Positions 6,001-32,000 of a stretch of 32,000 nt of DNA are shown one piece after another (the stretch's first letter is position 1; each line of letters begins with the position of its first letter). The notes beneath the pieces were generated by a model, which was given only the letters and a program-made list of their open reading frames with translations, made no database searches and was not told the origin of the DNA. The DNA is from Candidatus Saccharimonadota bacterium. GTDB lineage: Bacteria > Patescibacteriota > Gracilibacteria > Absconditabacterales > Absconditicoccaceae. The translations under genes and the position numbers were made by a program. The stretch is from assembly GCA_000503875.1 (NCBI GenBank), contig CP006913.1:570001-602000 (forward strand), written 5' to 3'.

Positions 6001-8332
6001 TACAAAGATTACCATTTTGAACTCCTGATCGATTAGAACTATACATCGTTCTATCTTCTCCATAACGTCATGTACCATATAATGCTGCCACCATATCACA
6101 ACTATTTGGATTTTGATCCCAAAATGCTCATGTTATAAAATTAGAATTATCCCAATTTACTGTATATTTATTAAAACAATCATTGCATGTCATATCTGTA
6201 TTTTCTTCTATTTTATTTATTTCTCCTATATACAAACTTCATGAATAATAAGAGTTTGATCAAGTAAGCTGAGACAATATATAGAAAACAGGTTGTATCT
6301 GTTTAGGAACATTTATACCATAAATATAAGAAAGACTATTGGGTGATGATGTCCATCATCATATCTTTCATCTACTATTACAAGACCGATATATACCAGT
6401 ATTTGTTAGCGTTCATGAAGCTATATCGACTGGATTGGTAATATTAGCACAACGAAAACATCCACTATCAATTTCTATAGATCCTCATGTCCATCACAAA
6501 AAAGAAATATCAGCAAGATTCCCTGTAATCAAACCAGTAAGTATTCCATCTATATTTTGATCATTTTCAGAAAAAATAAGTGTATCATAATATTTATTAT
6601 TGGTCAGTGTTCAACCAAGAGATAAACCCGTTTGATTATTTTTAATAGATACTCTGTTTAATATCGTACCTGAAGTTGAGTTAAGTATTATTCAATATAA
6701 CGCATTATTATAACTTTGTGCATTATTTATTACATTATAATGAGAGTTATTAAAGATATAAATTCCATAACTTGAATTATTATACGATTGAATATTATTT
6801 AACGAATTATAACTAGAAGTTGTTTGAATAACAATTCCATTATCTGAATTGTTATACGATTGAATATTATTTAACGAATTATAATTAGATGTAGAAAATA
6901 GATATATTCAATATGCATTATTATAACTTTGAATATTATTTAATATATTATTAGAAGAAGTCTGAAGTTGAATACCATAATTAGTATTATTATAACTCTG
7001 AATAGTATCCAATGTTATAGAATTAGAAGTAGTATTTAAATAAATTCCCTTATTATTATTAAGTAATTGAATATCATGTATAGTACTATTTACTATAGAT
7101 TGAAAATATATTCAGTTTGCATTTTTTGTATGAGATCATCACCATCCATTTCAAGATCAATTAACACTAATTCCATCTATTATGATATTATTTTTCGTAG
7201 TAGCATAAAACATTCACTGAGTAGCGGTACTCAATTGTACTGATGAATAGAAATTGATATTTCATGTACCACCAATTACTGCAGAGCATCAATTCATAGC
7301 AATAGCTCCTGTTGTAATATAATTTCCTGATCATAAAATATAAATAGTATTTGCTGCTAGAGCAATAGGTAGAGATCATGTTCCTTCAGTAAGATATACA
7401 ACAGACATATTTCCCGTAATACATGTGACTCCAGTTCGATTTCTTGTATATGCAGTCCTTTCTATTCATCAACTTCCATCTCCATATAACGCTCTTATCA
7501 CATCTTGATTTGTTGGATTATTATTCCAGAAATCATCTGTTATAAAATTGTCATTGTCCCATTGGATTGATCCTACAGTAAACAAGGTAAAGTGATTTGT
7601 AGTAAATACTACATAGGAACTATTATCGATTTCTTGAACCATAGTTTGTGTATGAAGTTTCCATTCTTTTCCATTTTCTGATGAATAGATATTAACTTTT
7701 TCTCCTTGATTATATCATGGAGCTGGCATTCTAATTGTTACATATTCATCTTGTCCTTTCTCATTTTTAAAGAACAAAGATTCTTGATCTGATCATACTT
7801 CAATAAGAGAAACAGCTGATTTATTATCTAATTTATATTGTTTAGGGTCGATAAAAGTTGGAACTTTTATTTCCTTAGTATAAAAGGTATTTTTTTTAGT
7901 TTTAATAGCAATTCATGCTGGAATTTCCACTTGAGCAACTTTATTATTCAAGGTGTTTTTTGAAATAAGAACTGTTTGAACAAGAATTTTTCCGTTTTTA
8001 GAAAGAGAAATATTTTTATCAGTTATATTCTTAGTTTCAGATGAAATATTAGTATCAAATACATTATTGGTAACAGATACTGTTTTATCGTCCAACAATT
8101 CTGATGAAGATGAATCAACAGTAGTTGGTTTCGAATTAGAAATAATCACTGGAGTGAGATCTATTACTCAGGTATTTTCTTTTATATCCTGTTTATAAAT
8201 AGGTTCTGGAATTATAGGAGAATTTAATTCTTCATTTTTTTCTCAAAAGAAAAAATAAGCAACAGAAAGAATTATAGATAAAAATAGAATTATTAAGAAA
8301 TACATAGCTCCCTTTCTATATTTTTTTTTCAT
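1..8332 (-). CDS. Giant cell-surface protein (putative adhesin). The N-terminal 2,777 codons are visible and the C-terminus runs off the left edge. It has an N-terminal membrane anchor/signal, then at least five tandem modules of a Cys-rich linker domain plus right-handed parallel beta-helix (PbH1-type) repeats.
   Basis: The minus-strand frame with codon first bases at coordinates = 1 mod 3 has no TAA/TAG from 8332 down to 2 (checked line by line); only TGA interrupts it. Track fragments 7913..8149, 5843..6046, 5429..5671, 3830..4048 and 119..310 all lie in this frame. ATG at 8332 gives MKKKYRKGAMYFLIILFLSIILSVAYFFF (hydrophobic anchor); an alternative in-frame ATG is at 8305. There are many 22-24 aa turns of the type S-x-N-N-I-L-N-N-I-Q-S-Y-N-N-x-x-Y-G-I-Y-L. 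Each helix starts with P-G-x-Y-I-T...C-N-A-I/V, as in pectate-lyase-fold proteins. Confidence 0.85.
1670..6460 (-). repeat. Three tandem, clearly paralogous ~1.6 kb (about 532 aa) coding modules inside the giant gene. More diverged copies flank them at about 6600..7560 and 1..1670.
   Basis: The conserved C-F-R-C anchor (plus-strand acaacgaaaaca) sits at 6449..6460, 4853..4864 and 3254..3265, giving periods of 1,596 and 1,599 bp. The blocks L-Y-I-G-E-I/V, F-W-x-Q-N-P-N-x-C-D, A-L-Y-G and P-G-x-Y-I-T recur in the same order in each module. Confidence 0.8.
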
Positions 8333-8699
8333 GGAAATAATTCTTATATAAAAAAATTACCAGCTGATAACCAAAAGTAATCAAAAATACAAGAAAATCA
8401 AGTTAAAAATCAATAAATAACCGGCAAGATTCCATTTTTTTTATAGTTTGACAAAAACGATTTAAGTAATACCGTAGAGAGTAAAATAAAGTCAACTAGA
8501 AAAGGATTAATAATAAATATTGTCCATTCTTAATAAACAATAATCTCTTGTTCTCAAGAATATAATTCTAATAATGAAAACCAAGAATTCTTAATCAATA
8601 AAAACAATAATAAATGACGTGACGAGAAGCAATATACATACCAGGAACTGCAGGTATAATAATGCGAATAATCTGATATTTATGATCTGCAAAATAATA

Positions 8700-9641
8700 T
8701 TAATCGATATTTTCTATTAAGATATCTTTCATTTTTTCATATATTTCTTTCACATCTTCTGGTGATTCATAATTAGGAAATAATGTCTGTCCCAAAGCAA
8801 CTTTTACATCAAAAGAATCAGCTAAAGCAACATTATTTGCAATCATTTTTTCGATTTGATCAGCTGTATATCAATTAGTTATAAGTACCTCACTAATCTC
8901 CTCTTCTGTCATAATATGAAAATTTCATACAGGTTGTCTCCTATCCATTTCATATATTTTTTTCCCATCTTTTACAGCTAATGCTACTTCCCAAGCTTCT
9001 TTATCAGATTTTTTTATATAATGATAATTTGTATTAACTACACAAGGTACACCAAGCTCCTGACACAAAGAAAATATATAAGTATTTATACGTTCTAACT
9101 CTGAATTTTCACTATGAAGTTGTGCTATAATTTCTCCATACACTGCATATTCACCAAGAACAGATTGCAATAAACGAATGATTTCACTAATTTTTTCACG
9201 AGATTCATCACGTAAAATCATTTTTCCTATCCATGATTGGTTACCACCAAATAAACAAACAACTCCATCAAAAAAAGAACGAATAGCTCAAAGATCAACT
9301 TTAGGTTTTCCTTTAACTCAAATAGTATTAGCATAAGAAGTAAGTTCCAGAAGAGATGAATATCATTTTGTTGTTTTAGCAAGAAAGACTATATTGCCAA
9401 CTTGATCAATAGGATAGATAGAAGTTACATCCAAAACAAATCCAAGTTCAACTCAAAGAATAGGTTTAATTCATTCATCTTTACAAGCTCACAAAAACTT
9501 AATAGCACCAAACATACCATTATAATCAGTGATTGCTATTGCTGACATTCCAAGTTCTTTGGCTCTAGCAGCAATTTTTGCTGGTTTACCAATGGCTTCG
9601 AGAAATGAAAACGTGCTATGTCCATGAAGATGAATAAACAT
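8700..9641 (-). CDS. dnaE: DNA polymerase III alpha subunit, N-terminal PHP domain only (313 aa). It is truncated relative to full-length DnaE of about 1,100+ aa, so it is a fragment or a split gene.
   Basis: The table-25 translation starts MFIHLHGHSTFSFLEAIGKPAKIAARAKELGMSAIAITDYNGMFGAIKFLGACKDEGIKPILGVELG, a typical DnaE PHP N-terminus. Similarity continues to ...LGQTLFPNYESPEDVKEIYEKMKDILIENID, then TAA at 8700..8702. The palm/fingers regions are absent and nothing downstream (8333..8699) is coding. No in-frame TAA/TAG; the track ORF 8925..9221 is in frame. Confidence 0.75.
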
Positions 9642-9663
9642 TATCTCTTACTAACAAATAAAA

Positions 9664-11205
<1,542 letters not shown>

Positions 11206-11285
11206 TCATAAAAAAATAAATGCTGATCTTTTAATATAGTTTCTACTTATTTTTTCAAGTCAACCTCACATTTCTTACACTCGAA

Positions 11286-11313
11286 TTGAAAACAGAAGAG
11301 ATATTACTATAGT
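11286..11313 (+). promoter_or_regulatory. Candidate sigma70-type promoter for the SbcC-like gene (TTGAAA, 16-nt spacer, TATAGT)
   Basis: ttgaaa at 11286..11291 and tatagt at 11308..11313, in the 177-bp divergent intergenic region. In AT-rich DNA such matches also arise by chance. Confidence 0.3.
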
Positions 11314-11376
11314 ACCAAAGAGAAAAACGATAAAACAAAATTATTAACTTTTAAAATCTACTGAATTCAAGCAATT

Positions 11377-13899
11377 ATGTTAGATATTATAGCAATTTCA
11401 TATAAAAACATATGACCATTCAAAGGAGATCCAATTTCTTTGTTTTTTCTACAAGGAAAATATCTCATCAAAGCACCTATAGGAACTGGTAAAAGTTTTC
11501 TATTTTTTGATTGACCAATTTATTGATTATACAAATACAATACAAGAAATCTTTTAAACAACACTTCTTCAGAAGGACAAATCAAAATATTGTTTACATT
11601 CGAAAATGAAACTCGACTAATTATTAGACATATTACCAAAGCAAAAATCAAAGAATCATGCACATCAACCCTCTATAAAGTACAAAATTATGAAATAATA
11701 CCAGAAGAAATAATCAAAAAAAATGAAGATATAGAAGTCTATATCAAAAAATCTGGCGCTATTTTGGAAAAAATAGAATTTAAGAACGAAACAGATCTTC
11801 AACAAACATTTCTTTCTTTTTTGCCTCCCAAAGAAGTTTTTGTAAATACCGTATTTTTGATGCAAGATTCAGACAATATTTTTGAATTACTACCAAGTGA
11901 AAGGCTTACTGTGCTCAAAAATGTATTCTGACTCCTAGGAATCGATGAAGCCAAAGAAATAATCGCAGAAAAGAAAAAAGAAATCAGTTATAAACTCAAA
12001 AATTATTCAGATACCAGCAAATATGATGAAAAAACACAGTTTCTTATCAAGAAACTTTTCCAAAACCATCAACAATTACAAAAAGAACCAATAGAAGAAA
12101 TCAAAGAATTGATTGATAAAAAGAATAAAAGTTTACAGGAATTAGAGCTTATTCAAGAAAAAGTTACTATACAAGATTTGGACATAAGTAATTTTTGAGC
12201 AGATATAAACCTAGAAATAGATATAATAATTCAAAAAGAAAAAGACAAGCATAAAAAAATTCATAATCAGCTAGAGAATATCCAAGAATCAATTAAAACA
12301 GTAAAACAAAAGCTAGACACTAAGAGACAAAATTTATTTTCTATTCAGAAAAACAGTCAAGAAGCTGAAGAAAATATCAAAAGCATTGAAAATAATAATT
12401 TTGAAATTATAAAAAAACAAGTAGAAGAGGATCAAGAACTATTACATCAAAAAGACAGTAACCTCCCCTATCAACATATCTCTCTATTTTTAGATAACTG
12501 TAGACTAAATACAGAACTAGAAGATTTTAGTAAACTCAAAGAAATTCAAGGGATAGAAAGCGTATATAGCATTATCAAACAACTTATAGAAAAAGGGAAA
12601 TCTCTTCAAGAAAAAATCAAAAATAATCAGCTTCTTATACAAAATAAACAATTAGAGCAAAAATCAGAACAAGAAAGATATATTCAATGAGAAAAAACAT
12701 TATTAGATCAACAAGGAGAATTAGAAAAACAACTTTTAGAAACAGAAAATCATCTAAAAACATTTGAAAATAATATAGAACAACAAGCTACTTTTTCATG
12801 TGAAAAGATACAGACAAATTGCCCATTCATCAAAATAATCAACAAAAAAACATTTGATCAACTTGAAGAACAAAAAAAAACTTTTGTAAATAAAAAAAAT
12901 GATCTCGAAAAAGCAATTTGAAATAAAAAAGAACAAAGAGAAAATATAAAAAAACAACAAGCTGAAATAGGCACCAAAGAAGTTGAACTCCTTGTACAAC
13001 AATATCAAGAAAACATATTACTTCAAGAAAAAGCAACCACAACTATCAAAGAATTTCTCAATAATATAGAACGAAAAAACATAGAAACAGACTACCAATC
13101 ATACATAACAATTAAAAAGGAAAAAATAGCAAAAGAACTACAACTCAAAGAAGCAGAAAATCTGCAAAAGAAAAAAGAAGAATATATACAACATATAGAA
13201 AAAAACAAAGAAATCGAAAAACGTATCAAACAAGAAATACAAGAGAGTGAAAATGAAATACAAAGCTTTGAAAATAATAAAAAAACAATTGAAGAACAAA
13301 TTCAGAATATTAATTATGAAAAAATACTACAAGCTGAAGAATATAACAATCAATGTATCACTATCCAACGCGATATTGCGAATATGATTAATGAGTTCAA
13401 AACTCTCCAAAGAGAAACAGAACTTCTCAAAAAACAAGAAAAACAAATAGGCAATCTATACAACATTTTTTCAAAAGAACTACTTCTTTTGGTATTACAA
13501 GATCACTTACCTATCCTAAATGATATAATAAATAATTATTTATCACAGATAGTTGAATATCAGATATCACTTAAATTAAATAAAACAAACAGTGACAAAT
13601 TAGAGTTAGAAGCCAATATTATTGATAAAGAGGGCGAAAGAGAAATCAAAAGTCTTAGTTGATGACAAAAAATTATTTTAAAACTTATTTGGATGCTTTC
13701 TATATCTTCATATATGAGATCACCAATATTATTTTTGGATGAAACTATAAATAACTTAGATACAGAGACTGTAAGTAAAGTTGCTGATATGTTGGAAGAT
13801 TTTGTAAAACAAAGAAATATAAAATTTTACACAGTTACTCATAATCAACAAATCCAAGATATGCAAATACGAGATAAAGTCTTGGAAATAACAAGATAA
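11377..13899 (+). CDS. SbcC/Rad50-family SMC-like ATPase (840 aa) with a long central coiled coil
   Basis: N-terminus MLDIIAISYKNIGPFKGDPISLFFLQGKYLIKAPIGTGKSFLFFDGPIYGLYK (Walker A G-T-G-K-S). About 550 aa of K/E/Q-rich heptad-like sequence follows. The C-terminus carries the ABC signature S-L-S-G-G-Q, with both Gly encoded by TGA TGA at 13660..13665, and Walker B ILFLDE. All 20-codon lines from 11881 to 13384 were checked and have no TAA/TAG. Confidence 0.85.
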
Positions 13900-13910
13900 A
13901 TATCATAGAC

Positions 13911-13938
13911 TTGAAATTTAGATAATTTTTAGTATCAT
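13911..13938 (+). promoter_or_regulatory. Candidate promoter for the transporter gene (TTGAAA, 16-nt spacer, TATCAT)
   Basis: ttgaaa at 13911..13916 and tatcat at 13933..13938, 34 bp upstream of the ATG at 13972. Confidence 0.3.
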
Positions 13939-13971
13939 CCCACTCCGTTACTATTTATTTAAACCAAAAGG

Positions 13972-15129
13972 ATGAAGAAATATAAAAATTTAATTCTTTT
14001 TCTAGTAATTACTTTCTTACGAAGTATCTTTTTGGCAATGGCCAAAATTTTCTTACGATCTGCACTCAAAGAAGATAATAGGACATTGGAGGAAATTGCT
14101 GGATATATCAGTTTATGAGCAACAATATCATATTTTATAGGTGGGGCGTTAAATTATACTTTTCGTAAAAAACCTATTGTGATTGTTTCATGAATAGTCG
14201 TTATTATATGCTTGATTTATGGATATATGACAGATTATTTTCCACTCAAAAATTTTGCATTTATTATTTCTATTATGTGATTTTTTTATGGATTACGACT
14301 TACCGTAAAAGGAATTCTTACCACTGTAGAAATCATGGAATCATGATTGGGTGAAACAAAAATCAATGCTATCACAAATATAGTTATATTCCTATGATTA
14401 TTAACAGGTTCTTATTGGTGATTTGATATATACGATCGTCTACAAGGCGTTGGTGTTATTTGACTTATTTGAACAGTTGCGTTAGCAACAATATTGATTC
14501 TTTTTACCAAATATGATATAAATTTCAAAAAACATACATTACATAGCGCAATAACAAAGAATATTCCAAACATTTTCTGATCTATTAAAAAATACTTTAG
14601 TTATCTTATTCCAATAGGAGTTTTACGAGCAATTTCTACTGCTGTAGGACAAAAAATGTTGGAAATAGGAATAGATATTATGAATAAAACACCAACAAAG
14701 GGAATTATAGTAATTGTTGTTTCTATGGTATGAGCAATAGTAGGACATATCATTTCTACTCCAATAATCAAAAGAAAAAGAGTTCTTTCTACATTATTAA
14801 CTATATTATTAGCTATTAGTATAATGTTTTTCCCCAATTTCTTAGCACAAAAAGATACATTTTTATTTATGATGTGATATAGTGCATATTTATGAGTTAT
14901 ATTCGGTGTTATCGTAAACTTAATAGAAGGAAGATTTTATCATCAAATAGGTGAAGACAATAGAAAAGAATTCTGATCTGCAGCTTATGGAATTATCACG
15001 AGTATTATTATCTTTCTTATTATGATTATAGGAAATAATGTCACTAAAAAGATTGGAATAAATGCAAGCTTTATCTTTTATTGAATAACAGTTGCTGCAA
15101 TTATCCCTTTTATAAGAAGAGTTGAATAA
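13972..15129 (+). CDS. Polytopic integral membrane protein, MFS-like transporter (385 aa; family uncertain)
   Basis: Continuous table-25 ORF (checked codon by codon) made of roughly 10-12 hydrophobic segments separated by short K/R-rich loops, e.g. NLILFLVITFL.., IVIVSGIVVIICLIYGY.., GIIVIVVSMVGAIVGHIIS.., ITSIIIFLIMIIG. The opposite-strand track ORFs 14601..14837 and 14920..15177 are shadows. Confidence 0.75.
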
Positions 15130-20132: not shown

Positions 20133-20166
20133 GATGGTAGCATAACAAATAATGCTATCATTTTTC
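20133..20166 (+). terminator. Rho-independent terminator after the aminotransferase gene
   Basis: gatggtagcat (20133..20143) pairs with atgctatcatt (20152..20162) with two G-U pairs, followed by a T-run. Confidence 0.5.
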
Positions 20167-20260: not shown

Positions 20261-22696
20261 ATGTTCTGAATTCTTGGGAACAATGCAAGGAATCTCCTCT
20301 ATATCAAAAAGTTTAACGATAAAAAAGCTATTCGTCTGGCGAACAACAAACTCGAGACAAAAAACTTCTTATCAGAAAGAGGAATCCCTTTCGCCAAAAC
20401 TTATGGAATCATATCCAATCGTAATGAACTTTATGACTTTGATTTTTCTTATTTACCAAAAAAAACATTTGTCATAAAACCAAATCAATGAAGTAAATGA
20501 GAATGAATTTTGATAGTAAAAAATATCACCAAAGAAGAACAACCAATACACAAGAAAAAAAATACAATAATAGATAATTTGGAAAAACGACGAGCGAAAA
20601 TAATACCCTATAAAACAATTCCAATCAATAGAAAAGAACTTTATCATGTAGGAGAAAAATCAATCAATGACGAAACATTTAGAAGATATTTGCTTGATAT
20701 CATCGATTGAAAATATTCTATGACAATGGGAAATGACAAAGTAATTATAGAAGAAAAACTAATTCCAGGAGAATTATTTAAAGAATTTTGTGAACGATGA
20801 TTAGCAGATATTAGAATCATTGTTTTCAATCTTGTTCCTATTGCTACAATGATTAGAGTGCCTACAAAATATTCCAACGGAAAGGCAAATTTAGCACAAT
20901 GATGATTAGGGCTTGGAATAGAAGTATGAACAGGAAAAATAACATCTATGCTTCGAAAAAACAAAGTATATACACGTAAATTTCCCAAAGAGTTTGGTCA
21001 TTTTTTTGGAAAACAAATTCCTTATCGAAACGATATTTTATTCCTTTCATCAAAAGCTCAATATTATGTAAACCTTGGATATCTTGCTCTCGATCGAGTA
21101 ATAACAAATGAGGGACCAAAACTTTTGGAAATCAATGCAAGAGCCGGTTTAGAGGTACAAAAAGTAACAAACACTCCTCTAGAAAAAATATTAGAAAAGA
21201 TTGAAGATCTCAATATTCAAGATCCAGAAAAATGAGTAGAAATAGCAAAAACTTTGTTTAGCAAAGAATCTAATGATCTTATCAAACAACAAAAAATTCT
21301 TTATTTATCTCAATACGGGAAAGTTATTTTAAAAAATGATGATGATGAAACTATAGATGTTATCGTAGAAATTGATCTTAATAAGCAAAATAATTATGTA
21401 ACGCCAAGTATATATGATAAAATCAAACAAAAATCTGATTTTATTTTGGATATGTATGAAAACGACATAATTCTTAAAAAACCAAAACTTATTGCAAAAG
21501 AACAAATAAGTGAAAATAAAATTATATTAGGAAGAAAAACTGCAGAAAAATTTCTCATAAAACCTATTCACAAAACATTCGAAAAGATAGAAATTATCTC
21601 TTCTGATAAATTGCTTCCGCTGGAGACCAAAGAACTACATATCATCGATGAAAGATTAGAAAAGCTCTCCAAAAGATTAAACCTCTCAGCAAAACTCAGA
21701 CCAACAAACTATTTCAATGAACTTGATAATTTTATTACACGAAAAGGTAATTATAATCCTATTTTTCAATATAAACGACCAACTGAAGAAAAAATATTAG
21801 AAACAAAAAATGATTTAGAAAAACTTCAAGAAAAAACAAATAAATTAGAAAGTCCTATAAAAAAACTTTTTTTAGAAAAAGCAGATGAATTAACAAATAA
21901 ATTATTCTTACTACAATCTTATACAAAACAAAATTTTAAAAACATAGCAATATATAATGAGAAACTTTTTGGTTCATTTGATCAGGAACTTCTCAAAAAT
22001 TCAAAAGAAAAAGTGTTTTCACAAAAGGAAAATAATCAAGAAATATTGGGGGAACCATTGAAATTATCAGAAATAGAACAACTTATAGAACGCTATCTTG
22101 CTGAAAAAAAAATATATGGTGTTGATATCGTATTCAGTTATGATAATCTTTCTAGAATTTCTGTCATTATGGGAAAAGAAATCAGAATCAGTATTTCTAA
22201 ACATGGTATTTTTAGAGAAAAAGAAATTCTTTCAATTCTGGCTCATGAAATAGATACACACCTTGTAAGACATCTTAACGGATTAAAATCTTGACGAAAA
22301 ATATTTAAATCATGAACAGGATATTATCTAAAGGATGAAGAAGGTTTAGCTATATGGAATGCAAGTAAATTTTTGCCTGAAGAATATGAAAAAGACAGTA
22401 TATACAAAAAATATATTTTAATAAACGATTGAGAAAAAATGGATTTTAAAAAACTATGTGAAACAGCTAGATTCTATTATCCAGAAAGAAGTAATGAATG
22501 ATTATTTAAAACAGCTATTAGAATAAAGAGATGATTAATAGATTCTTCAAGAATTTGAAAAGGAACAAATGCAATTCAAAATAAAATATATTTAGAATGA
22601 TACGAAAAGATAAAAGAAATTTTCAAAAATTGAGGAGAAATCGATAGATTATACAAGGGGAAAATTAAAATAGAAGATTTAGATTTTATAAAATAA
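20261..22696 (+). CDS. Fusion protein (811 aa): N-terminal ATP-grasp amino-acid ligase (alpha-L-glutamate-ligase-related, sugar-transfer-associated type) plus C-terminal DUF1704/QEGLA-family (MATCAP-type) metallocarboxypeptidase
   Basis: Track ORFs 20510.., 20948.. and 21254..22294 share one frame with the ATG at 20261; only TGA intervenes. ATP-grasp blocks: FVIKPNQGSKGEGILIV (20477..20509; three Gly are TGA), GLADIRIIVF, VPTKYSNGKANLAQGGLGLGIEVGTGKI, GPKLLEINARAGLEVQ (21128..21154). DUF1704 blocks: KLRPTNYFNELDNF..NPIFQYKRP, H-E-I-D-T-H (HEXXXH, 22244..22261), E-E-G-L-A (22337..22351), RIKRGL..GKGTNAIQNKIYLEGY. Stop TAA at 22694..22696. Confidence 0.9.
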
Positions 22697-22705
22697 ATAT
22701 TTCCA

Positions 22706-23584
22706 ATGAAACTACTAAGATTATATGAATCTAGAGAAATAAGTAAAAAAAAAGAGAGATTTGATACAGAAGCAAAAATAATATGAGGCATAGAGACTTA
22801 TTTTATGCCATATTTAGATATATATTATGATGGGAAATTCAGAAACATTATAGATTGAAAAGAGATCGAAGATGCTGATATATACTGGATACCATCTACT
22901 GTAAAAAAATGAATTAGCATGAATTCTTGATTAATATATTATCTAGGAATATTAAAAAAGAAAAAGATAATGGATCCTTTTAAATATTATGGAATCCTTT
23001 GAGGAAAATTTCAACAAACATTGTTTTTTAATCATTATTGACACAAGACACCAAAAACATTTTTTTTCCAAATAACCCAAGAACATAAAAAATCCTATAT
23101 AGATATTATAGAAAAAAATTTCACTTATCCATTTTTAACCAAAGATTTATATTTGGAAAAAGGGAAATGAGTAATTCTTATTAAAGATAGAGAAGAATTA
23201 ATAAACAACATAAATAAATATACAGACCAAGGAATATTAATACAAGAATGTATAGAAAATACCTGAGAATATAGAATATTATGTGTTTGAAAAAAAATAA
23301 TAGGAAGCTTCAAAAGATATAATCCTAACCATTACAAAAACAATACATACAAATGAACACTCTTTGAAAAAGCAGAATTAACGAAAGAAACAAAAAAAGA
23401 AGTTCTGAAAATGGTGGCTAGATATGGCATAGAATTTGCTGGTATAGATCTCTTAATCGGTAAAGATTGAGAACTCTATTTTTTGGAAATAAATTCATGA
23501 CCTCTCTACAAAAGAGCCGAAGAAGTTTTGGAAATAAACGTAGTAAAAGAACTTTTATTGTATCTTAAAAAAGGTGGAAAATAA
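22706..23584 (+). CDS. RimK/GshB-like ATP-grasp ligase (292 aa)
   Basis: Continuous table-25 ORF (checked) starting 9 nt after the previous stop. Motifs: YPFLTKDLYLEKGKGVILIKD, GILIQECIENTGEYRILCVGKKIIGSFKRYNPNHYKNNTYKGTLFEKAEL, GIEFAGIDLLIGKDGELYFLEINSGP. These follow the RimK pattern (K-P..G-S-x-G-x-G-V, Q-E-F-I..D-x-R, R..F-x-x-N..G-G, G-x-D-L..E-x-N..P). Confidence 0.85.
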
Positions 23585-23605
23585 TATTTATATACTACCA
23601 TAATA

Positions 23606-24856
23606 ATGAAAAAGATTGCTGTAACATGAACTAAATGAAAAACAACAATAATAAGATTAATCAATTTTATTTTATTAGAATTATGAAATAAGACATTGTC
23701 TGTCGATTCAGATTGAGTATATATAAACTGAAAACAGAAATTAGACAAAAAAGATTCTATAAACATCTATTGATTACTACCCTGAAAATGCCCATGACGT
23801 TTCCTATATTTAGGATATGATTATAAGAATAAATATTGGAAAATAGATTATGCAGTATTAGAAACAATTATTGGCTGTTATGTTACCTGACTTTGATATA
23901 AAAAACACGATATATGAGTTTTTTCAAATGTATTTGAAGACCATATAGGAGGCCTATGCTCCGCAATCAAAACAAGAGAAGATTTAGCGTTAAGAAAATA
24001 CAGAATTATTTCAAAAATTAAAACAGGATGATATTTTGTATACAATATGGATGATCAGCTAATAGCAAACAATATGGATGATCATATATCAAATGAAATT
24101 AAAAAAATATGAGTAACAAAAGATTTAGAAAAATTTCAATGAAAAAAAACATGTATATTCATTTCAAAAAAAGAAGTTAAAATAAAAATTAGCAACAAAA
24201 TTATTAAATTTGATCTATCCAATAACAAGTTTTCTTTCTATTGAGAATATGAACCAGCATTATACAATATTGGTTTATCTATTTGATGATTATTAGGATT
24301 ATTAGGAGAAGAAATATTTATATCAAAACACAAACAAATAAAAGAAAGTATAGATAGATATACAACTGATATATTAGGAGGAAGAATGATCTTATTGGAA
24401 CAAAATGGCAGAAAAATTATATTGGATTATGCACATGAAAAACAGTCATTATCAGCAGTTCTAAAGCTAGCAAATACATTGAAAACAGGGAAATCTATAG
24501 GTGTTGTAAGACTATCTCCCGAAAGAGAAGATAAAATATATCATAACATAGGGAAAAGTATTGCAAGCCTTGCTGATGAATTTATTGTATACGATAAAAT
24601 TGATTGAATAGAAGACAAATCATATACAATAAATACAAAAGAAATAAAAAACAAGAAAAGAAACCCATGAGAAATAATGCATTTATTTGCTGAATGAATT
24701 AAAACAAAAAATAAAAAGGTACAAGAAATTATTTATCGAAAAGATGCAATAAAATATTGATTAAAAAACACTAAAAAAGGAGATGTAATAGTAATCATAG
24801 TAAAAAACAGCAAAGAAACAGGTGTTTTTATAAAAAAATACCTTAAGATAAAATAA
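23606..24856 (+). CDS. Mur-ligase-family protein resembling the M (Mur-ligase-like) domain of cyanophycin synthetase CphA (416 aa)
   Basis: P-loop I-A-V-T-G-T-K-G-K-T-T with Gly encoded by TGA at 23627..23629 and 23636..23638. LSVDSDGVYINGK (compare CphA T-T-D-G-I-Y-I). DYAVLETIIGCYVTGLGYKKHDIGVFSNVFEDHIGG (compare CphA A-V-L-E-T-A-R-G-G-I-L-R-x-G-L...N-I-x-x-D-H-L-G). ILDYAHEK (compare D-Y-A-H-N-P). The frame was checked; track ORF 24386..24607 is in frame. It starts 21 nt after the ATP-grasp gene. Confidence 0.85.
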
Positions 24857-24906
24857 GCTGATACAAAAGGAAGAAAACACAGAAGAAAATTCTTAATCAC
24901 TTTCCC

Positions 24907-24935
24907 TTGATTCCCCCACTCAAATCACTTAAATA
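24907..24935 (+). promoter_or_regulatory. Candidate promoter for the 7TM gene (TTGATT, 17-nt spacer, TAAATA)
   Basis: ttgatt at 24907..24912 and taaata at 24930..24935, in the 109-bp gap before the ATG at 24966. This is a weak -10 match. Confidence 0.25.
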
Positions 24936-24936
24936 T

Positions 24937-24960
24937 GAGGCAATTTATTTGCCTCTTTTC
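24937..24960 (+). terminator. Hairpin plus T-tract immediately upstream of the 7TM gene. It is either a terminator/attenuator for the ligase genes or a 5' leader hairpin.
   Basis: gaggcaa (24937..24943) / ttgcctc (24949..24955), 5-nt loop, then ttttcttctt running into the ATG at 24966. Confidence 0.4.
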
Positions 24961-24965
24961 TTCTT

Positions 24966-26492
24966 ATGAAAAAACTCTCATTACTCATAACAATACTTCT
25001 TTGACTTTTTGTTTTTCCAGCATTTGCTGAGGAACAAGCACACAATGCTGCATGATGTGAAAATAGGACATATGACATCAAGGGTTTATCTGATATCAAA
25101 AAAGGTCAAACTGCTGAATATAGTATGGTTTGGGCAAAAGATAAATATCTTTGACCTATAAGCTTTAACTCTATAAAATTCACTTTAAGCAAAAACAACA
25201 AGGTTATTTCAAAGAATAATTCTGATTTTTTCTCATTTACTCCTTCTGAATTAGGAAAATATACATTACAAGTAGAAGCAATCGATAACCAAAACTGTTA
25301 TAGTAAAATAAGCAAAACCATAACTACTCATGATAAAATCATTCTCTATATAGGGAAAGCTAGCGAAGATCTTCAAGTAGAATTCGATGATACTTTCAAA
25401 AAAAACAACACTCTTTTTAAGAAGATCATCATAAAAGAAAAAAAACTTTTTGGAGAAGATGAATTACTATGAGAACTCGCTGAAAATAGTAGTTATATTA
25501 AAAACAGTTCTATTATTATTATTAATATAAGCAATTTTGATAGTTTCTTTCAATTATTATGAAATATTAATAAGACAGAGACGCTCAACTTAAACAAAAA
25601 AGATATTTATCTTATAACAGATCTTAATAAATATTTTCTCAAAAGAATAGTTGCAAAATATCTCAATACCGTATGAATAGAAAAAATTTACACCGTAAGC
25701 GATAAAGATTTCTTTAGTGTTCTTTCAAAACTTTCTTTTAAAAAAGATTTACAAAACGATCCTACAATAACGACATTTTCATTATTATTTCAAGAAGCGC
25801 CCAAATATATTCTGATTTCTTATTTAATAGATAATTTAATTTACAATTGATTTCCTATTGATTTAATAGGTATATTACTAGTTTTATGTATAGCAACACT
25901 AGTCATAAGCATCTTTAGACAAGTTATTTGATTCTCTGTCTTTGGAATTTATAGTCCTCTTCTTTTTGGGCTTGCCATGGCAATTCTCAATATAAAATTA
26001 AGTCTTATCCTTTTAGCTATTGGAATTTTAGCCAAGGTCTTAACTCATCTTCTCAACAAAAAAATATATCTTCTTTTTAATACTAAATTATCTGTCTTAG
26101 TCGTTCTTTATTTTCTACTGACAATCATAGTTCTTGGGCTAGATAAAATTCTTCACACCAACATTATAAATCTGGATATATTCAATAATGGATTTATTAT
26201 TTTCCCTATTATGTTTATTATTATTGTTACTGATAAAGTATTCAACGAAGGATTTAAGGTATTTAGTCTAGGATGGTGGATTTCTTTTGGAGAATTTTTA
26301 ATTGTAAGTTTCTCTGTATATGGATTATTAAATCGATGATGGATGAAACATATATTATTATCATACCCAGAAAGTATTCTTATTGTTCTTTTGTTACATA
26401 TAATTATCGGTAGATTTACAGGTCTTCAATTATTAGAATATTTCCGTTTTATGCCTCTTATCAAAAAACATTTCGATAGTGAAGAAGAATAG
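24966..26492 (+). CDS. Membrane protein (508 aa): signal peptide, ~290-aa extracytoplasmic domain, and a C-terminal 7TM_transglut-type seven-helix module (the partner of RimK-related ATP-grasp ligases)
   Basis: MKKLSLLITILLGLFVFPAFA (signal). The C-terminal half is seven hydrophobic helices: FRQVIGFSVFGIYSPLLFGLAM..., IIFPIMFIIIVTDKV..., and the family-typical tail YPESILIVLLLHIIIGRFTGLQLLEYFRFMP (26409..26450; compare G-R-Y-T-G-Y-R-L-x-E-x-x-R-F). The frame was checked from 24966 to TAG at 26490..26492; track ORF 25977..26339 is in frame. Confidence 0.85.
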
Positions 26493-27327: not shown

Positions 27328-27443
27328 ACACAAAAAATCTGATAACTAAAAGCTTGCACAAAATAAGGACACATTCTTGTTTTGACAGGCTTTTTTTATA
27401 TATTAGACAAAAGTAGACATTTTATTTTTCCAGACAATAATTT

Positions 27444-30400
27444 ATGAAAAAATTATTTTCACTAATTACAAGCTTTGCTCTAATATTTTCTTTGTTTTCC
27501 AATCGAGTAATAGCACTCACATGGACTATTGAATACAGTCCTAGTAGTTTAACCAATACTGATGTTGTAGCAACCATCACTGGTTTTGATGAAACAGGAA
27601 CAGTTATCCTCAACAATGGATGATCTCCCATTTATACATTTACCAATAATAGTTCTTTTGATTTTGAGTTATCAGGTGATATCAGCACAGGTACCGCAAA
27701 TGCAAACGTAACATGGATCGATAAAGAAGCACCTCAAATCATAAATATAACTGGATGACAATATTTCAAAACAAACATTATCCCAACCATTATTGATTCA
27801 AATTATTCAGGAGCAACACTCAATGGCTTAGAATATACAGGAACAGAAATTACTGATGAAGGAAATTATACACTATTTGTAGAAGATACATTAGGGAATA
27901 ACCAAACCGTTTCCTTTACTATAGATAAAACATTGCCAACAGCAAGTATCGATTATTCTCATACAGGAATCACGAATCAAGATGTTATAGCAACCATTAC
28001 AGGATTTTCTGAAACCATCACCGACCTCAATAGTACAGGGACTACCTTTACAACAAATGGAACATTCACTTTCACCTATCAAGATTTAGCGGGAAATTTG
28101 GGAACAACTGTAGCTGAAGTCACAGGTATTGATAAAACGCCACCTACAGCAATCGTAGATTATTCTATTCTATGACCAACAAATAGTGATGTTATAGCAA
28201 CCGTTACCGGATTTTCTGAAACCACAACAAATCTGAATACACCAACACATACTTTCACATCAGATGACAGTTTTATCTTCACGTATGAAGACGAAGCAGG
28301 GAATACAGGATCATCAGTAGCAACCGTTACACGAATCGACAAAGAAATGCCTACCTATAGCGGAATAACAACATGATGATTATACGGAAACGAACAAACA
28401 ATTACCTTCAGCGATAATAAAGCAGGCGTTAGCGCAACACTCAATTGAGCATGATATACTAATGGAACACCTATCAATGGTTATGGAATTTTCGAATTTA
28501 TAGTTACAGATACTGCGGGAAATACTACATGAGCCACCTTTCAACTTGATACGACAGTACCAACAATAACAATTAATGGTTCATCACCCCTATATCTTGA
28601 AGTCTTTTCTCCCTACACAGAAAGCTGAGCAACATGGTCAGATAATAGTAGTTCAGGAACGGTAAGTGATATGATTGGAGCAGTAAACACAAACATCATT
28701 TGAACCTATACCATTGATTATTTCTATAGCGATGGTTTCCATACATGATCTACACAAAGAGAAATATTTATCCAAGATACAACGGCACCAATAATAACGC
28801 TCAATGGAGATAATCCAGTAACTATTGAACGCACATTCTCTTATACAGAAAGCTGAGCAACACGATCAGACAACTACGATGGAACAGGCGATATAACAAT
28901 AATTTCATGATCGGTAGATACAAACACAGTTTGATCATATAACATAAGTTATGAAAAAACAGATACTTCATTAAATAGTAGTTCGCTATCAAGAACGATC
29001 AACGTCATAGATACTATACACCCTACAGCAAATATTATCTATTCAAAAACATGAATAACAAATCATGATGTAGTAGCAACTATTACAGGATTTTCTGAAA
29101 CTACAACAAACCTCAATACAGCAAATTATACTTTCACAGGAAATGGAACCTTTATTTTTACTTACGAAGATCTTGCGGGAAATACATGATCGACACTAGC
29201 AACCGTTACATGGATTGACAAAGAAATGCCTACTGCAAGCCTACGATACGATCCAATGGGACCATCATGGACCAATGGAAGCGTTTTTGTACAAATAACA
29301 TGATTTTCTGAAAGTATAACGTGATTAAATCAACCAGATTATTTATTTATTACCAATGGAACCTTTGTTTTTAATTATCGAGATATAGCCGGAAACACAG
29401 GAACAAATACAGCAACCGTTACATGGATTGATATTACGCCACCTACTATTGGACAGGCAACTATTTCGGTTGGAACAACAGGAAATAACGGTGCTACATT
29501 ATATTATAAAGGAATAATTGATATCAAAGCAACCGTTAGTGACGCTTGATGATCAGCTCTCGATGGATCAACATGTGAATACACACTCGACAATGGAGCA
29601 ACACGAAATCCAGCATGATTTAGTAGTACATACTGCCAATTAACAAGCTTAGATCCAGCAACAAATATCCAACTCGCATTTAGAATACAAGATACTGCAA
29701 CAAATCTAACAACAGGAACTACGAATAATTATATTTTTGATAATACAGCACCTAGTACCACGGCAAATCCAAGTTCATGATTAAGTAATACAAGCATACC
29801 TGTAATACTTTCTAGATCAGATATTGGAATCTGAACATTTTCAGGAACACGATATTGTATAGATACGACGGATACCTGTACACCAAACATTGCAGGTACA
29901 GTAGCAAGCATTACCGGTGCTGCAAACACTTCAGAAACAAAATATCTGAGATATCGTTCAATAGATAGATTAAACAACACGGAAAGCATAAAGAGTAATG
30001 TCTACACAATAGACAAAGTACTTCCCTCTATCACAGGCACAACAAGCTCTTCAAACAACGCTACAAATTCAGGATATGCAAAAACGAATGACATCATAAC
30101 AATCTGATTTTCAAGCACGAGACCACTTGCAACACTACCTACCCTTACTATTTCTGGAGGTAGTTTAACAACAGGTATTGTAACTGATCTTGGAGGGAAC
30201 AACTACTCTGGTACCTATATAGCAAAAGTAACAGATATCCAGGGACAAATGAAATTTATCGTAAATATGCAAGACACCTTAGGTAACACAGGAACAGCAA
30301 TCATAAATAGCGTTATTCTCGATAGAACAGCTCCTGCTGGTATAGCATTTACTTCACCAGCTGCAGGTGCCTTTTGGACATCAGGACGAAATTATGATAT

Positions 30401-32000
30401 CAGACGAACAACAGGTACGGAAACTAATTTTTGACCAACAAGCATCAAGATAACCTATTCAATCAATGGATTTAGTGGAAGTTCTACATTAGAAAATGGA
30501 ACAGGAAATAGTGGAACCTATACACGAAATAATTTCAATCTTACAGATAATTTCCAAACAAGAATTTTTGCAACAGATCTTGCAGGAAATCAAACAATAA
30601 TAACAAGTAGTGTAGTACAGATCGATAATATATCGCCTATTGCTGCAACATTTATTGCACCTACAGGTGGCGAATATTTCAAAGGAGGAAGTGGTTATCT
30701 TATCACATGGACAGGAGGATATGATGAAAATGTTGCATCAATAACATTGGAATATACAACAAACAATCGAGTATCTTCTGGTCTTATTTCAAATACAATA
30801 CCAACAAGTAGCACTTCTTATCTACGAACAGCACCAGCACTCAATTCCAATACCATAAAATTACGTGTTACTTATAGAGATTATGCATGACTACAAGGAA
30901 TCAAACAAACCCCGACGGTATTCACTATTGACTCTACAAAACCAAATATAACCAATATAATGTCAGGAAGAATTTATACAGGAACCATCACTCCAACCAT
31001 TGTAGAAGTTAACTATTCTGGTAGCATATTAACAAGTTCGACAGGAACAACGAGATATACAACAACTGGATATTCTATTACACAAAATGGACGATATGAT
31101 TTATTTATCGAAGATAAAGCGGGTAATTTTACAGGACGTATATTTGCGATAGATACCATTGCTCCAACCGTACAAATAGATACAGGAACCATCTATAAAA
31201 ACACAGGATTTACCCTAACAGCAACAGGTATTGACGCCACTGCTGGTATTTCTTGATATCAACGAACAAAATTCAGTGGAACAGGAACTCTCACTTTCGG
31301 ATCTGGGACTTCTAATACAACATCAATTACAGCAAGTACAGGAGGAACCTACATTATTCAAGTTAAAGCAATAGATAAAGCAAATTTAAGTTGATTTGCA
31401 ACGTTTACGCTAATTCGAGATAACCAAGCACCTACACTTTGAAGTTGAACAGTTACAACAGGAAACAAAATAGCTACATTTACTTTTTTCTCCAACAAAA
31501 CAGGCACAGTTATCTATAGTGGAAGCTGTGGAAATGGAACAACAACATCAATAACAAATAGCTGAGCTACTACAATATCCTGGACTTTAACAAACAATAC
31601 GTATAGTAATTGTAACATCAAAGTTACTGATAGTTTTGGAAATTATAGTCGAATAGCTGTTCCTAGCTTTACTATCAATTATACAGCTCCAAGTTGATGA
31701 GGTGGTTGATGAGGTTGAGGAGGAGGATGAACAACAATACCAACATGTACTCTTTCAAATCTTGTTTGTGAAAATTGAAAATACACCAAAAAATCTGGAG
31801 TTTCTTGTCAATGAGGCGATCTTTGATATTCTTGTTCAGAAACAAGTAGTGGTACATCTACAGGGACAACATTAGAGTTTTCTGACAGTATTTTATCAAC
31901 AGCTTCAGCAGAAACTATTGCAGCAACATTAGTCGGAATTCAATGAGTTGCTGAACTTAAAAAAGCTTATATTTATGGAAAATATTTAGGATTAACAAGT
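27444..32000 (+). CDS. Second giant cell-surface protein. The N-terminal 1,519 codons are visible and it continues past the right edge. It has a signal peptide, arrays of bacterial Ig-like domains, DUF5011-like domains, a poly-Gly linker and a Cys-rich segment.
   Basis: ATG at 27444 (MKKLFSLITSFALIFSLFSN, signal-like). The frame with codon starts = 0 mod 3 has no TAA/TAG to position 32000 (checked line by line). Track ORFs 27933.., 30249.. and 30960.. are in frame. Recurrent ~70-aa units T-N-x-D-V-I/V-A-T-I-T-G-F-S-E-T...T-F-T-x-N-G-T-F-x-F-T-Y-E-D-L-A-G-N-x-G...A-T-V-T-W-I-D-K-x-x-P are characteristic of surface Ig-like repeats. Confidence 0.9.
27519..29444 (+). repeat. Five copies of a ~70-aa Ig-like coding repeat (27519..27734, 27936..28145, 28146..28352, 29022..29231, 29232..29444), interrupted by other domains
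   Basis: Each copy carries T-N-x-D-V-x-A-T-(I/V)-T-G-F-(S/D)-E, an A-G-N-x-G block in four of the five copies (the first has D-I-S-T-G instead), and ends in V-T-(W/G/[CGA])-I-D-(K/I)-x-x-P. Confidence 0.7.
28557..29021 (+). repeat. Two tandem DUF5011-like Ig domains (28557..28784 and 28785..29021)
   Basis: VPTITINGSSPLYLEVFSPYTESGATWSDN...IGTYTIDYFYSD aligns with APIITLNGDNPVTIERTFSYTESGAT-[CGA]-SDN...VGSYNISYEKTD. Both match the P-x-I-x-L-x-G...Y-x-E-x-G-A-x-A-x-D...G-x-Y-x-I-x-Y pattern. Confidence 0.65.
31695..31730 (+). other. Twelve-codon poly-glycine linker written as tga tga ggt ggt tga tga ggt tga gga gga gga tga
   Basis: Read directly in the frame of the giant ORF: six TGA interleaved with three GGT and three GGA, flanked by ..Y-T-A-P-S and T-T-I-P-T-C. 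Confidence 0.9.

Follow-up and report, generated by a model that had tools for sequence, protein, structure and literature searches.

Several bacterial and eukaryotic enzymes act on acidic peptide ends. The ATP-grasp ligase RimK ligates onto the C-terminal glutamate of S6, and LysX and ArgX act likewise on LysW. Poly-Glu is bound by RimB and RloA, and MATCAP removes the residue after the ...GEE of alpha-tubulin. A bacterial gene neighbourhood that joins an ATPgrasp_ST ligase to a 7TM_transglut membrane protein, with seven transmembrane (TM) helices, was reportedly first predicted by Iyer et al. in 2009. Described here are four genes, A to D, in a 32,000-nucleotide stretch of an Absconditabacteria (SR1) genome (assembly GCA_000503875.1, contig CP006913.1, positions 570,001 to 602,000, forward strand). 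The whole stretch is called the window, and its own numbering is used. In this locus, Absconditabacteria possess their own version of the RloB/RloC-type amidoligase-plus-7TM system, marked by a fusion of a ligase, a dead retropepsin and a MATCAP domain, by the replacement of the transglutaminase-like domain, by a hypervariable ligase cassette that includes a Mur ligase similar to the M domain of CphA, and by a universal glutamate tail on the 7TM protein.

The best described relative is the rloABC operon of Pseudomonas aeruginosa. It encodes a secreted retropepsin (RloA), a 7TM protein with an inactive transglutaminase (RloB) and an ATP-grasp protein (RloC). The RloA proteases cleave runs of at least eight glutamates. 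Loss of all three RloA proteases leads to osmotic, antibiotic, biofilm and shape defects, which are suppressed by the deletion of rloB or rloC (PMC11957051, 2025). This rescue of the triple protease mutant places the ligase, the 7TM protein and the acidic-peptide peptidase in one process. A Shewanella mutant in a 7TM-transglutaminase gene formed excess membrane vesicles (PMC12096838). Literature searches revealed no paper that joins DUF1704 or bacterial MATCAP to ATP-grasp, and none on Absconditabacteria ATP-grasp proteins or on 'alpha-L-glutamate ligase-like' proteins together with transglutaminase; for prokaryotic MATCAP, they led to reviews of eukaryotic microtubules.

Kinship with the rlo operon

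The ligase domain of A is 32% identical to an RloC-like 'alpha-L-glutamate ligase-like protein' encoded on a Legionella plasmid. The corresponding gene is organized in an operon with genes for a retropepsin-like and an inactive-transglutaminase 7TM protein, the rloABC arrangement. The 7TM module of D aligned with the Legionella RloB-like protein at a probability of 97.2% (hhalign). Both results bear out the kinship with the proteobacterial ATP-grasp/7TM-transglutaminase neighbourhood that a first, sequence-only reading of the window had proposed. A tblastn search of plasmids with the 7TM region of D yielded no match; the proteobacterial RloB-like genes were reached via the ligase domain of A. 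The same reading had included QEGLA/DUF1704 genes in the proteobacterial neighbourhood. This part found no support in the proteobacterial operons read, which carry a retropepsin (RloA), not DUF1704.

On Legionella adelaidensis plasmid 5 (locus L045), a complete rloA-rloB-rloC-type operon at 2984-5912 lies between two C1 (papain-like) peptidase genes. A signal peptide is apparently absent from its retropepsin.

Gene A, a fusion of ligase, dead retropepsin and MATCAP peptidase

Open reading frames (ORFs) were called under genetic code 25 (TGA as glycine), and CGA was read as tryptophan. The product of A comprises three domains. The first matched ATPgrasp_ST (PF14397) in Pfam with an E-value of 8.5e-46 (156.8 bits, cutoff 31.4) and the NCBIfam model TIGR02291 with an E-value of 3.7e-56, its 190 bits staying under the equivalog cutoff of 314. 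The closest solved folds in Foldseek are RimK, including the RimK-RpsF complex 5zk6, LysX/ArgX and CphA1. A family alignment of 59 sequences, with identities as low as 25%, shows the residues that bind ATP and Mg (K73, D159, E164, R199, N210, D278, E290 and N292) to be invariant.

The C-terminal domain matched MATCAP (PF08014) with an E-value of 2e-17 (63.7 bits, cutoff 27). The QEGLA model TIGR02421 was matched with an E-value of 4.2e-22 (79 bits, under the equivalog cutoff of 339). Human MATCAP (7z5g) was recovered both by phmmer (E 1.7e-9) and as the best Foldseek match (E 1e-12). The residues of the zinc site, HExxxH (H662, E663, H667) and E694 of the EEGLA motif, are likewise invariant among the 59 sequences. 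Given these invariant catalytic residues, both the ligase and the MATCAP domain are predicted to be active.

The AlphaFold model of A (mean predicted local distance difference test score, pLDDT, 86.8) shows a beta-rich module at residues 346-437 between these two domains. More distant relatives of the A ligase are fused to the retropepsin domain PF05618, some of them to retropepsin together with MATCAP, to retropepsin together with a second ATP-grasp domain, or to YdjC, and an intact PF05618 domain occupies the middle position in relatives of A. These fusions led to a profile comparison of the linker of A, in which residues ~342-441 matched RimB-like domains with a probability of 98.2% (E 2.7e-14, hhalign). 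The catalytic motif D-T-G-A is replaced by D-L-N-K and has been lost in all but two or three of the 59 members. The middle domain is therefore presumed to be non-catalytic; it may bind an acidic peptide. The sequence-only reading had described A as an ATP-grasp ligase fused to a MATCAP-like peptidase. Both domains are supported, and the dead retropepsin between them is to be added.

The fusion occurs in more than 500 database proteins. All named matches belong to Absconditabacteria or Gracilibacteria, including Vampirococcus lugosii. Many separate representatives in a library clustered at 50% identity retain the fusion length of ~780-820 residues. Signal peptides were found in none of A, B and C, which places these three proteins in the cytoplasm.

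Gene D and its glutamate tail

The product of D matched 7TM_transglut (PF14402) with an E-value of 1.9e-8 (34.5 bits, cutoff 25). A signal peptide is followed by an Ig/PKD-like domain (residues 35-122), an alpha/beta domain (124-272), seven TM helices (~298-484) and a short C-terminal tail. Neither Pfam nor a Foldseek search with the structure model revealed a transglutaminase or papain-like fold in D, so that of the 7TM_transglut-type protein proposed from the sequence alone, the 7TM module is the supported part. No transporter ATPase and no known exporter fold were detected in D.

The tail, which the sequence-only reading had overlooked, ends in ...DSEEE and resembles the end of Escherichia coli S6, ...DSEE. 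Within the D family, all 120 C-termini end in EE and 111 of them in EEE, the glutamate run being two to six residues long. This ending is specific to the family. All fetched loci together hold 1793 stop-to-stop ORFs with a length of 100 aa or more; exactly 22 of these end in [ED]EE, and all 22 are D orthologues. The signal peptide, the seven TM helices and the positively charged odd-numbered loops predict a cytoplasmic location of the tail.

Some orthologues of D are long (~500-525 residues) and possess the N-terminal Ig/PKD-like domain; others are short (~420-435 residues) and lack it. Many of their database entries contain W for an expected G (e.g. NSSWTEEEEE), a result of gene calling with code 4 instead of code 25.

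A conserved A-D core and a variable cassette

The locus was compared with 35 loci from GTDB genomes and several from metagenomes. Where sufficient downstream DNA was available (26 loci), A and D share one strand in 24 cases, at a spacing from ~50 bp to 6 kb. The interval between them harbors zero to three RimK-like ATP-grasp genes of the cluster of B, ATP-grasp_3, ATP-grasp_4, GNATs of at least four families and YdjC, the latter in loci L020 and L024; YdjC is also fused to a related ligase (P0297). A cassette peptidase family of 500-620 residues without a Pfam match (cluster 1) proved to be a divergent MATCAP-like protein with HExxxH/EEG motifs (probability 99%, hhalign). A 366-residue HExxH protein of the cassette (cluster 9) showed a weak MATCAP match (probability 64%). 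As the A-D linkage is kept and the contents of the cassette vary, A and D constitute the system, and B and C are lineage-specific accessories.

The sequence-only reading had treated the four genes as one co-conserved unit. This is partly supported: the parts and the general theme were recognized correctly, and A and D do travel together, but B belongs to a variable set of ligases and C occurs in none of the 35 GTDB loci. None of A to D matched an anti-phage defence model of PADLOC.

Cluster 1 genes were located at 12950-14626 of locus L003, at 7322-9193 of locus L011 and in 15 other cases. About half of the A-D loci carry such a gene, which can lie on either strand.

Genes B and C

B matched the Pfam family RimK with an E-value of 1.7e-24, the sole RimK model passed. 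TIGR00768 was matched with an E-value of 1.1e-27 at 97 bits (cutoff 143), and PRK10446 at 35 bits (cutoff 331), so that B stays below the RimK equivalogs, as does A. The closest relatives of B are cassette genes of the SR1 loci L019 and L015 (43-46% identity). Their cassettes carry a GNAT at the position of C and no Mur ligase. The proposal of the sequence-only reading that B and C were inserted as a cyanophycin-synthetase-like pair is contradicted by this arrangement.

C contains Mur_ligase_M (E 1.8e-14) and Mur_ligase_C (E 7.2e-11). The best NCBIfam model is cyanophycin synthetase (TIGR02068), matched over model positions 482-860 with an E-value of 3.4e-44, and CphA chains are the only matches of C among PDB sequences. 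The score of 151 bits is far from the CphA cutoff of 850, B did not match the cya_phycin_syn model, and the single-polypeptide N+G+M architecture of CphA1 is absent from the cluster. The P-loop GTKGKTT is located at residues 7-13, and the N-terminal UDP-binding domain is absent. Among the models of MurC to MurF, MurE scored best with 68 bits (cutoff 373). PgsB/CapB (TIGR04012) reached 15.5 bits (cutoff 222.7), the cluster contains neither a PgsC nor a PgsA gene, and the score against the FolC model was far under its cutoff.

Within SR1, C was found only in the window and in one 95%-identical Rifle contig. Outside SR1, members of its family are stand-alone proteins of ~420 residues in Saccharibacteria, Parcubacteria and others. 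All four neighbourhoods inspected there place the gene beside an ATP-grasp ligase, in three cases in a Mur ligase-RimB-RimK operon and in one case beside ATP-grasp_4. The three operons (L039, 7001-10129; L040, 6575-9696; L043, 7001-10158) have the conserved order Mur ligase, RimB-like retropepsin, RimK (with RimK_N) and DUF192, and the ends of neighbouring genes overlap. This operon of Saccharibacteria and other members of the Candidate Phyla Radiation (CPR) is apparently undescribed and suggests a chemistry of branched or modified poly-Glu. A joint acquisition of B and C from such operons was considered and rejected: B is 27% identical to their RimK proteins and 43-46% identical to the SR1 cassette ligases.

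Proposed mechanism and alternative explanations

The product of A is interpreted as a cytoplasmic writer, reader and eraser that would extend and trim an acidic peptide, most plausibly the tail of D, with B and C as decorating enzymes. The probability of this reading is put at roughly one half. The ATP-grasp domain of A would activate a C-terminal carboxylate as acyl phosphate and add amino acids, most likely glutamate. The acceptor would most plausibly be the EEE tail of D itself, or a peptide primed by it, comparable to RimK with S6 and LysX with LysW; it is favored because the closest solved folds of the A ligase all ligate onto a C-terminal glutamate of a protein. The dead retropepsin domain may grip the acidic chain, and the MATCAP domain may trim it from the C-terminal end. 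With ligation and trimming on one polypeptide, tail length and terminal residue would be set by the balance of both. The genes between A and D would encode lineage-variable accessory enzymes: the RimK-like B may extend the chain, and C, resembling the M domain of CphA, may couple an amino acid or amine to a chain carboxylate, e.g. that of a glutamate side chain, which is the cyanophycin pattern. The role of D in the envelope would then be tuned by the modified tail. Further still, and only as a tentative and rather doubtful extension, Absconditabacteria and Gracilibacteria may possess a bacterial counterpart of the tubulin-tail code, in which one writer-reader-eraser enzyme, joined by strain-specific accessory ligases, reversibly extends, branches and trims the genome-encoded oligo-Glu end of the 7TM protein.

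Several observations weigh against the main reading. D is absent nearby in loci L001 and L007 (~8-10 kb downstream), and in one standard-code lineage A adjoins RimK only, with no D within 8 kb on each side. C is not conserved with the system, and position is its one tie to A and D. Instead of being an acceptor, the tail of D could serve for docking or mimic the product. The two proteobacterial RloB-like proteins read, from Legionella and Aeromonas, lack the glutamate end, which limits the claim of a glutamate tail to the code-25 CPR family. In Legionella and Aeromonas, at any rate, another product is made or the product is exported. In Pseudomonas, the periplasmic location of the peptidase speaks for a product that is exported in that organism. 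Alternatively, A, B and C could make a free or primer-bound acidic polymer, poly-alpha-Glu with possible branching by C, which D exports or anchors, EEE being a docking or gating motif. The Pseudomonas genetics fit an RloC/RloB product that requires an extracytoplasmic poly-Glu-cleaving protease, and the tailless proteobacterial proteins agree with it. Free poly-alpha-Glu is also made by RimK according to the literature, the closest solved relatives of C are cyanophycin synthetases, and a strain-variable cassette is typical of surface structures. Nevertheless, the peptidase-type domains of SR1 are cytoplasmic and ligase-fused, so that the polymer would be degraded before export, D has no detected transporter ATPase or exporter fold, and the strict terminal glutamate run on D is left without a reason. 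The polymer is the most serious alternative, but an unlikely one.

Genes for YdjC and GNAT proteins in some cassettes and the Pfam label of PF14397, 'sugar-transfer associated', hint at a glycan-linked substrate outside the protein world. The ATPgrasp_ST ligase and the cassette enzymes would then aminoacylate an amino sugar or a precursor of the peptidoglycan or teichoic acid type, which D handles in the membrane. The fusion of YdjC-type deacetylases to related ligases, the diversity of the cassette GNATs and the classical use of sugar-nucleotide peptides by Mur-type ligases agree with this. In the window, however, the cluster is free of sugar-related genes, the N-terminal UDP-binding domain of MurC to MurF is absent from C, the closest folds to A are ligases of protein C-termini, and the relatives MATCAP and RimB/RloA work on peptides, which makes a glycan substrate quite improbable. 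It is less probable again that S6 or another soluble protein is modified as by classical RimK and RimB, the neighbourhood of D being incidental. B and the ligase of A are RimK relatives, and in other CPR bacteria members of the family of C are encoded in operons together with RimB and RimK, but A and B both stay under the RimK equivalog cutoff, the A-D linkage persists in 24 of 26 loci despite the turnover of the cassette, and the pairing of ligase and 7TM protein recurs in Proteobacteria. Ordinary housekeeping ligases (MurC to MurF or Ddl, glutathione synthetase, or a true cyanophycin synthetase) are barely credible. Their models gave weak sub-threshold matches, far under the curated cutoffs not only for MurE and CphA (above) but also for Ddl (19 against 246 bits) and GshB (17 against 272 bits); C has no Mur N-terminal domain, and no chain combines N, G and M. 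The sequence-only reading had hinged on the ligases not belonging to the ordinary peptidoglycan (Mur/Ddl) or glutathione pathways, and these results support it.

For the reading of A as writer, reader and eraser, the SR1 variant compresses the system, placing ligase, peptide-binding remnant and peptidase on a single cytoplasmic chain. The end of D, Glu-Glu(-Glu) in the style of RimK and LysX substrates, is a concrete candidate acceptor for the RloC-type ligase family, and bacterial MATCAP homologues are placed in a writer-eraser context akin to the eukaryotic tubulin tail cycle. In genomes of ~1 Mb, the locus is a hot spot for the turnover of ligases, GNATs and peptidases, which argues that the product matters for the epibiotic lifestyle. 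If the comparison with the tubulin-tail code were true, D would be the first example of a bacterial membrane protein whose C-terminus undergoes regulated poly-amino-acid modification. MATCAP would gain a candidate ancestral setting, and the substrate class so far missing for RloC-type ligases would be identified.

Gene order, genetic code and the leader of gene D

The coordinates of the cluster are compiled in Table 1. Under table 11, the region 20261-26492 consists of short ORF fragments only; code 25 yields four long co-directional ORFs with intergenic gaps of 9 (A-B), 21 (B-C) and 109 bp (C-D). Gene order, gaps and the preceding terminator reproduce what had been read from the sequence alone, and all five domain assignments were recovered by profile searches in Pfam and NCBIfam. 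The suspected CPR origin is confirmed by the record of SR1 bacterium RAAC1_SR1_1, to which the protein of A is 99% identical, differing at CGA codons.

Table 1. Features of the amidoligase-7TM cluster (window coordinates)
Feature	Position	Strand	Description
Terminator-like hairpin (11 pairs) and T-run	20133-20162	+	Ends the upstream aminotransferase gene; 5' boundary of the cluster
Gene A	20261-22696	+	811 aa; three-domain cytoplasmic protein (predicted); locus tag P148_SR1C00001G0552
A domain 1	20288-21205	+	Residues 10-315; RloC-type ATP-grasp ligase (ATPgrasp_ST/TIGR02291-like)
A domain 2	21284-21583	+	Residues ~342-441; degenerate RimB/RloA-like retropepsin
A domain 3	21647-22690	+	Residues ~463-810; MATCAP/DUF1704-type zinc carboxypeptidase
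Gene B	22706-23584	+	292 aa; RimK-family ATP-grasp ligase, member of the variable cassette
Gene C	23606-24856	+	416 aa; stand-alone Mur ligase (M+C), lineage-specific cassette cargo
D leader	24907-24965	+	Promoter-like TTGATT-17 nt-TAAATA; hairpin GAGGCAA/TTGCCTC (24937-24955); T-run abutting ATG
Gene D	24966-26492	+	508 aa; 7TM_transglut/RloB-type membrane protein
D C-terminal Glu-Glu-Glu	26481-26489	+	...KKHFDSEEE*; predicted cytoplasmic; candidate acceptor or docking tail

The recoding is borne out by alignment to distant homologues. At most TGA positions of A, 24 to 27 of 29 distant homologues have glycine. The nine CGA codons (residues 110, 111, 179, 232, 256, 279, 494, 506 and 679) align with tryptophan or aromatic and hydrophobic residues and never with a conserved arginine; residue 256 is tryptophan in 25 of the 29. 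A uses CGA nine times and TGG once. These alignment columns uphold the readings of TGA as glycine and CGA as tryptophan. A reassignment of CGA to tryptophan in Absconditabacterales was reportedly described by Shulgina and Eddy in 2021, and the codons of A fit it. The public protein records of RAAC1_SR1_1 show arginine at the CGA sites of A.

The hairpin and T-run of the D leader, located in the C-D spacer, scored as terminator-like. At least 10 loci retain the leader, whichever cassette gene precedes it, with the consensus TTGAnT, 17 nucleotides including an invariant AAATCA, TAAATA, and then hairpin and T-run. Since it is conserved irrespective of the upstream gene, D probably has a separate promoter and a structured leader. 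This element could be a leader/attenuator or a 5'-terminal stabilizing stem-loop. Covariation in the hairpin is modest, with one compensatory pair, and 28 of 500 shuffles reached the observed score. Copies of the leader outside the window were located at 14623-14695 of L003 and in L004, L005, L006, L008, L009, L012, L014 and L022.

Other genes of the window

Two predicted giant surface protein genes, both running off the window ends, occupy ~40% of the window. One (1-8356, minus strand) encodes more than 2785 residues with beta-helix-like 'NNIQSYNN' repeats, the other (27441-32000, plus strand) more than 1520 residues with Ig-like repeats. At 8700-9647 (minus strand), an ORF of 315 residues ends after the N-terminal PHP portion of a DnaE-like polymerase; the gene for the polymerase may have been truncated or split. 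The gene downstream of this ORF on the minus strand is a giant surface protein gene. The AT skew of 0.30-0.38 at 12-14 kb results from a very Lys- and Glu-rich gene for an SMC/SbcC-like ATPase (11212-13899, plus strand).

Comparison with known systems

The SR1 locus shares with rloABC the ATPgrasp_ST/TIGR02291-type ligase beside a 7TM_transglut protein, a retropepsin-type domain and the link to poly-Glu peptides. In SR1, however, the retropepsin is fused within the cytoplasmic A and has lost its DTG motif, whereas RloA is secreted and active, and the active peptidase is a predicted MATCAP-type metallo-carboxypeptidase. D carries Ig-like and alpha/beta domains instead of the periplasmic inactive transglutaminase domain. 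It bears an oligo-Glu tail, unlike the two proteobacterial RloB-like proteins, and the SR1 core genes are separated by a variable cassette of extra ligases.

The RimK-RimB/S6 pathway likewise combines an ATP-grasp ligase, which adds alpha-L-Glu to a protein ending in Glu-Glu, with a retropepsin that removes glutamate. RimK is among the closest folds to the A ligase, and B is a member of its family. The candidate acceptor in SR1 is a membrane protein, the putative eraser is a zinc carboxypeptidase, and A and B score below the RimK equivalog cutoffs. In the tubulin cycle (TTL/TTLL against MATCAP, VASH and CCP), an ATP-grasp writer and a MATCAP-fold eraser act on an acidic ...EE tail, and HExxxH plus glutamate is conserved in both. 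The SR1 system is bacterial, with writer and eraser on one chain, and its ligase belongs to the RimK/ATPgrasp_ST branch, not to TTL.

The resemblance to CphA1 lies in C, which is closest to the CphA M domain and adjoins an ATP-grasp ligase; this would permit a logic of backbone-plus-side-chain ligation. The SR1 genes are split, however, the N domain is absent, B is RimK-like and not G-domain-like, and the B-C pairing is unconserved in SR1 relatives. The CPR Mur ligase-RimB-RimK-DUF192 operons have neither a 7TM partner nor a MATCAP domain, their RimB-like gene is stand-alone (PF05618 family match), and their RimK carries RimK_N. Both systems combine a RimK-type ligase with a RimB-type domain, and the Mur ligase of the operons shares 37-39% identity with C.

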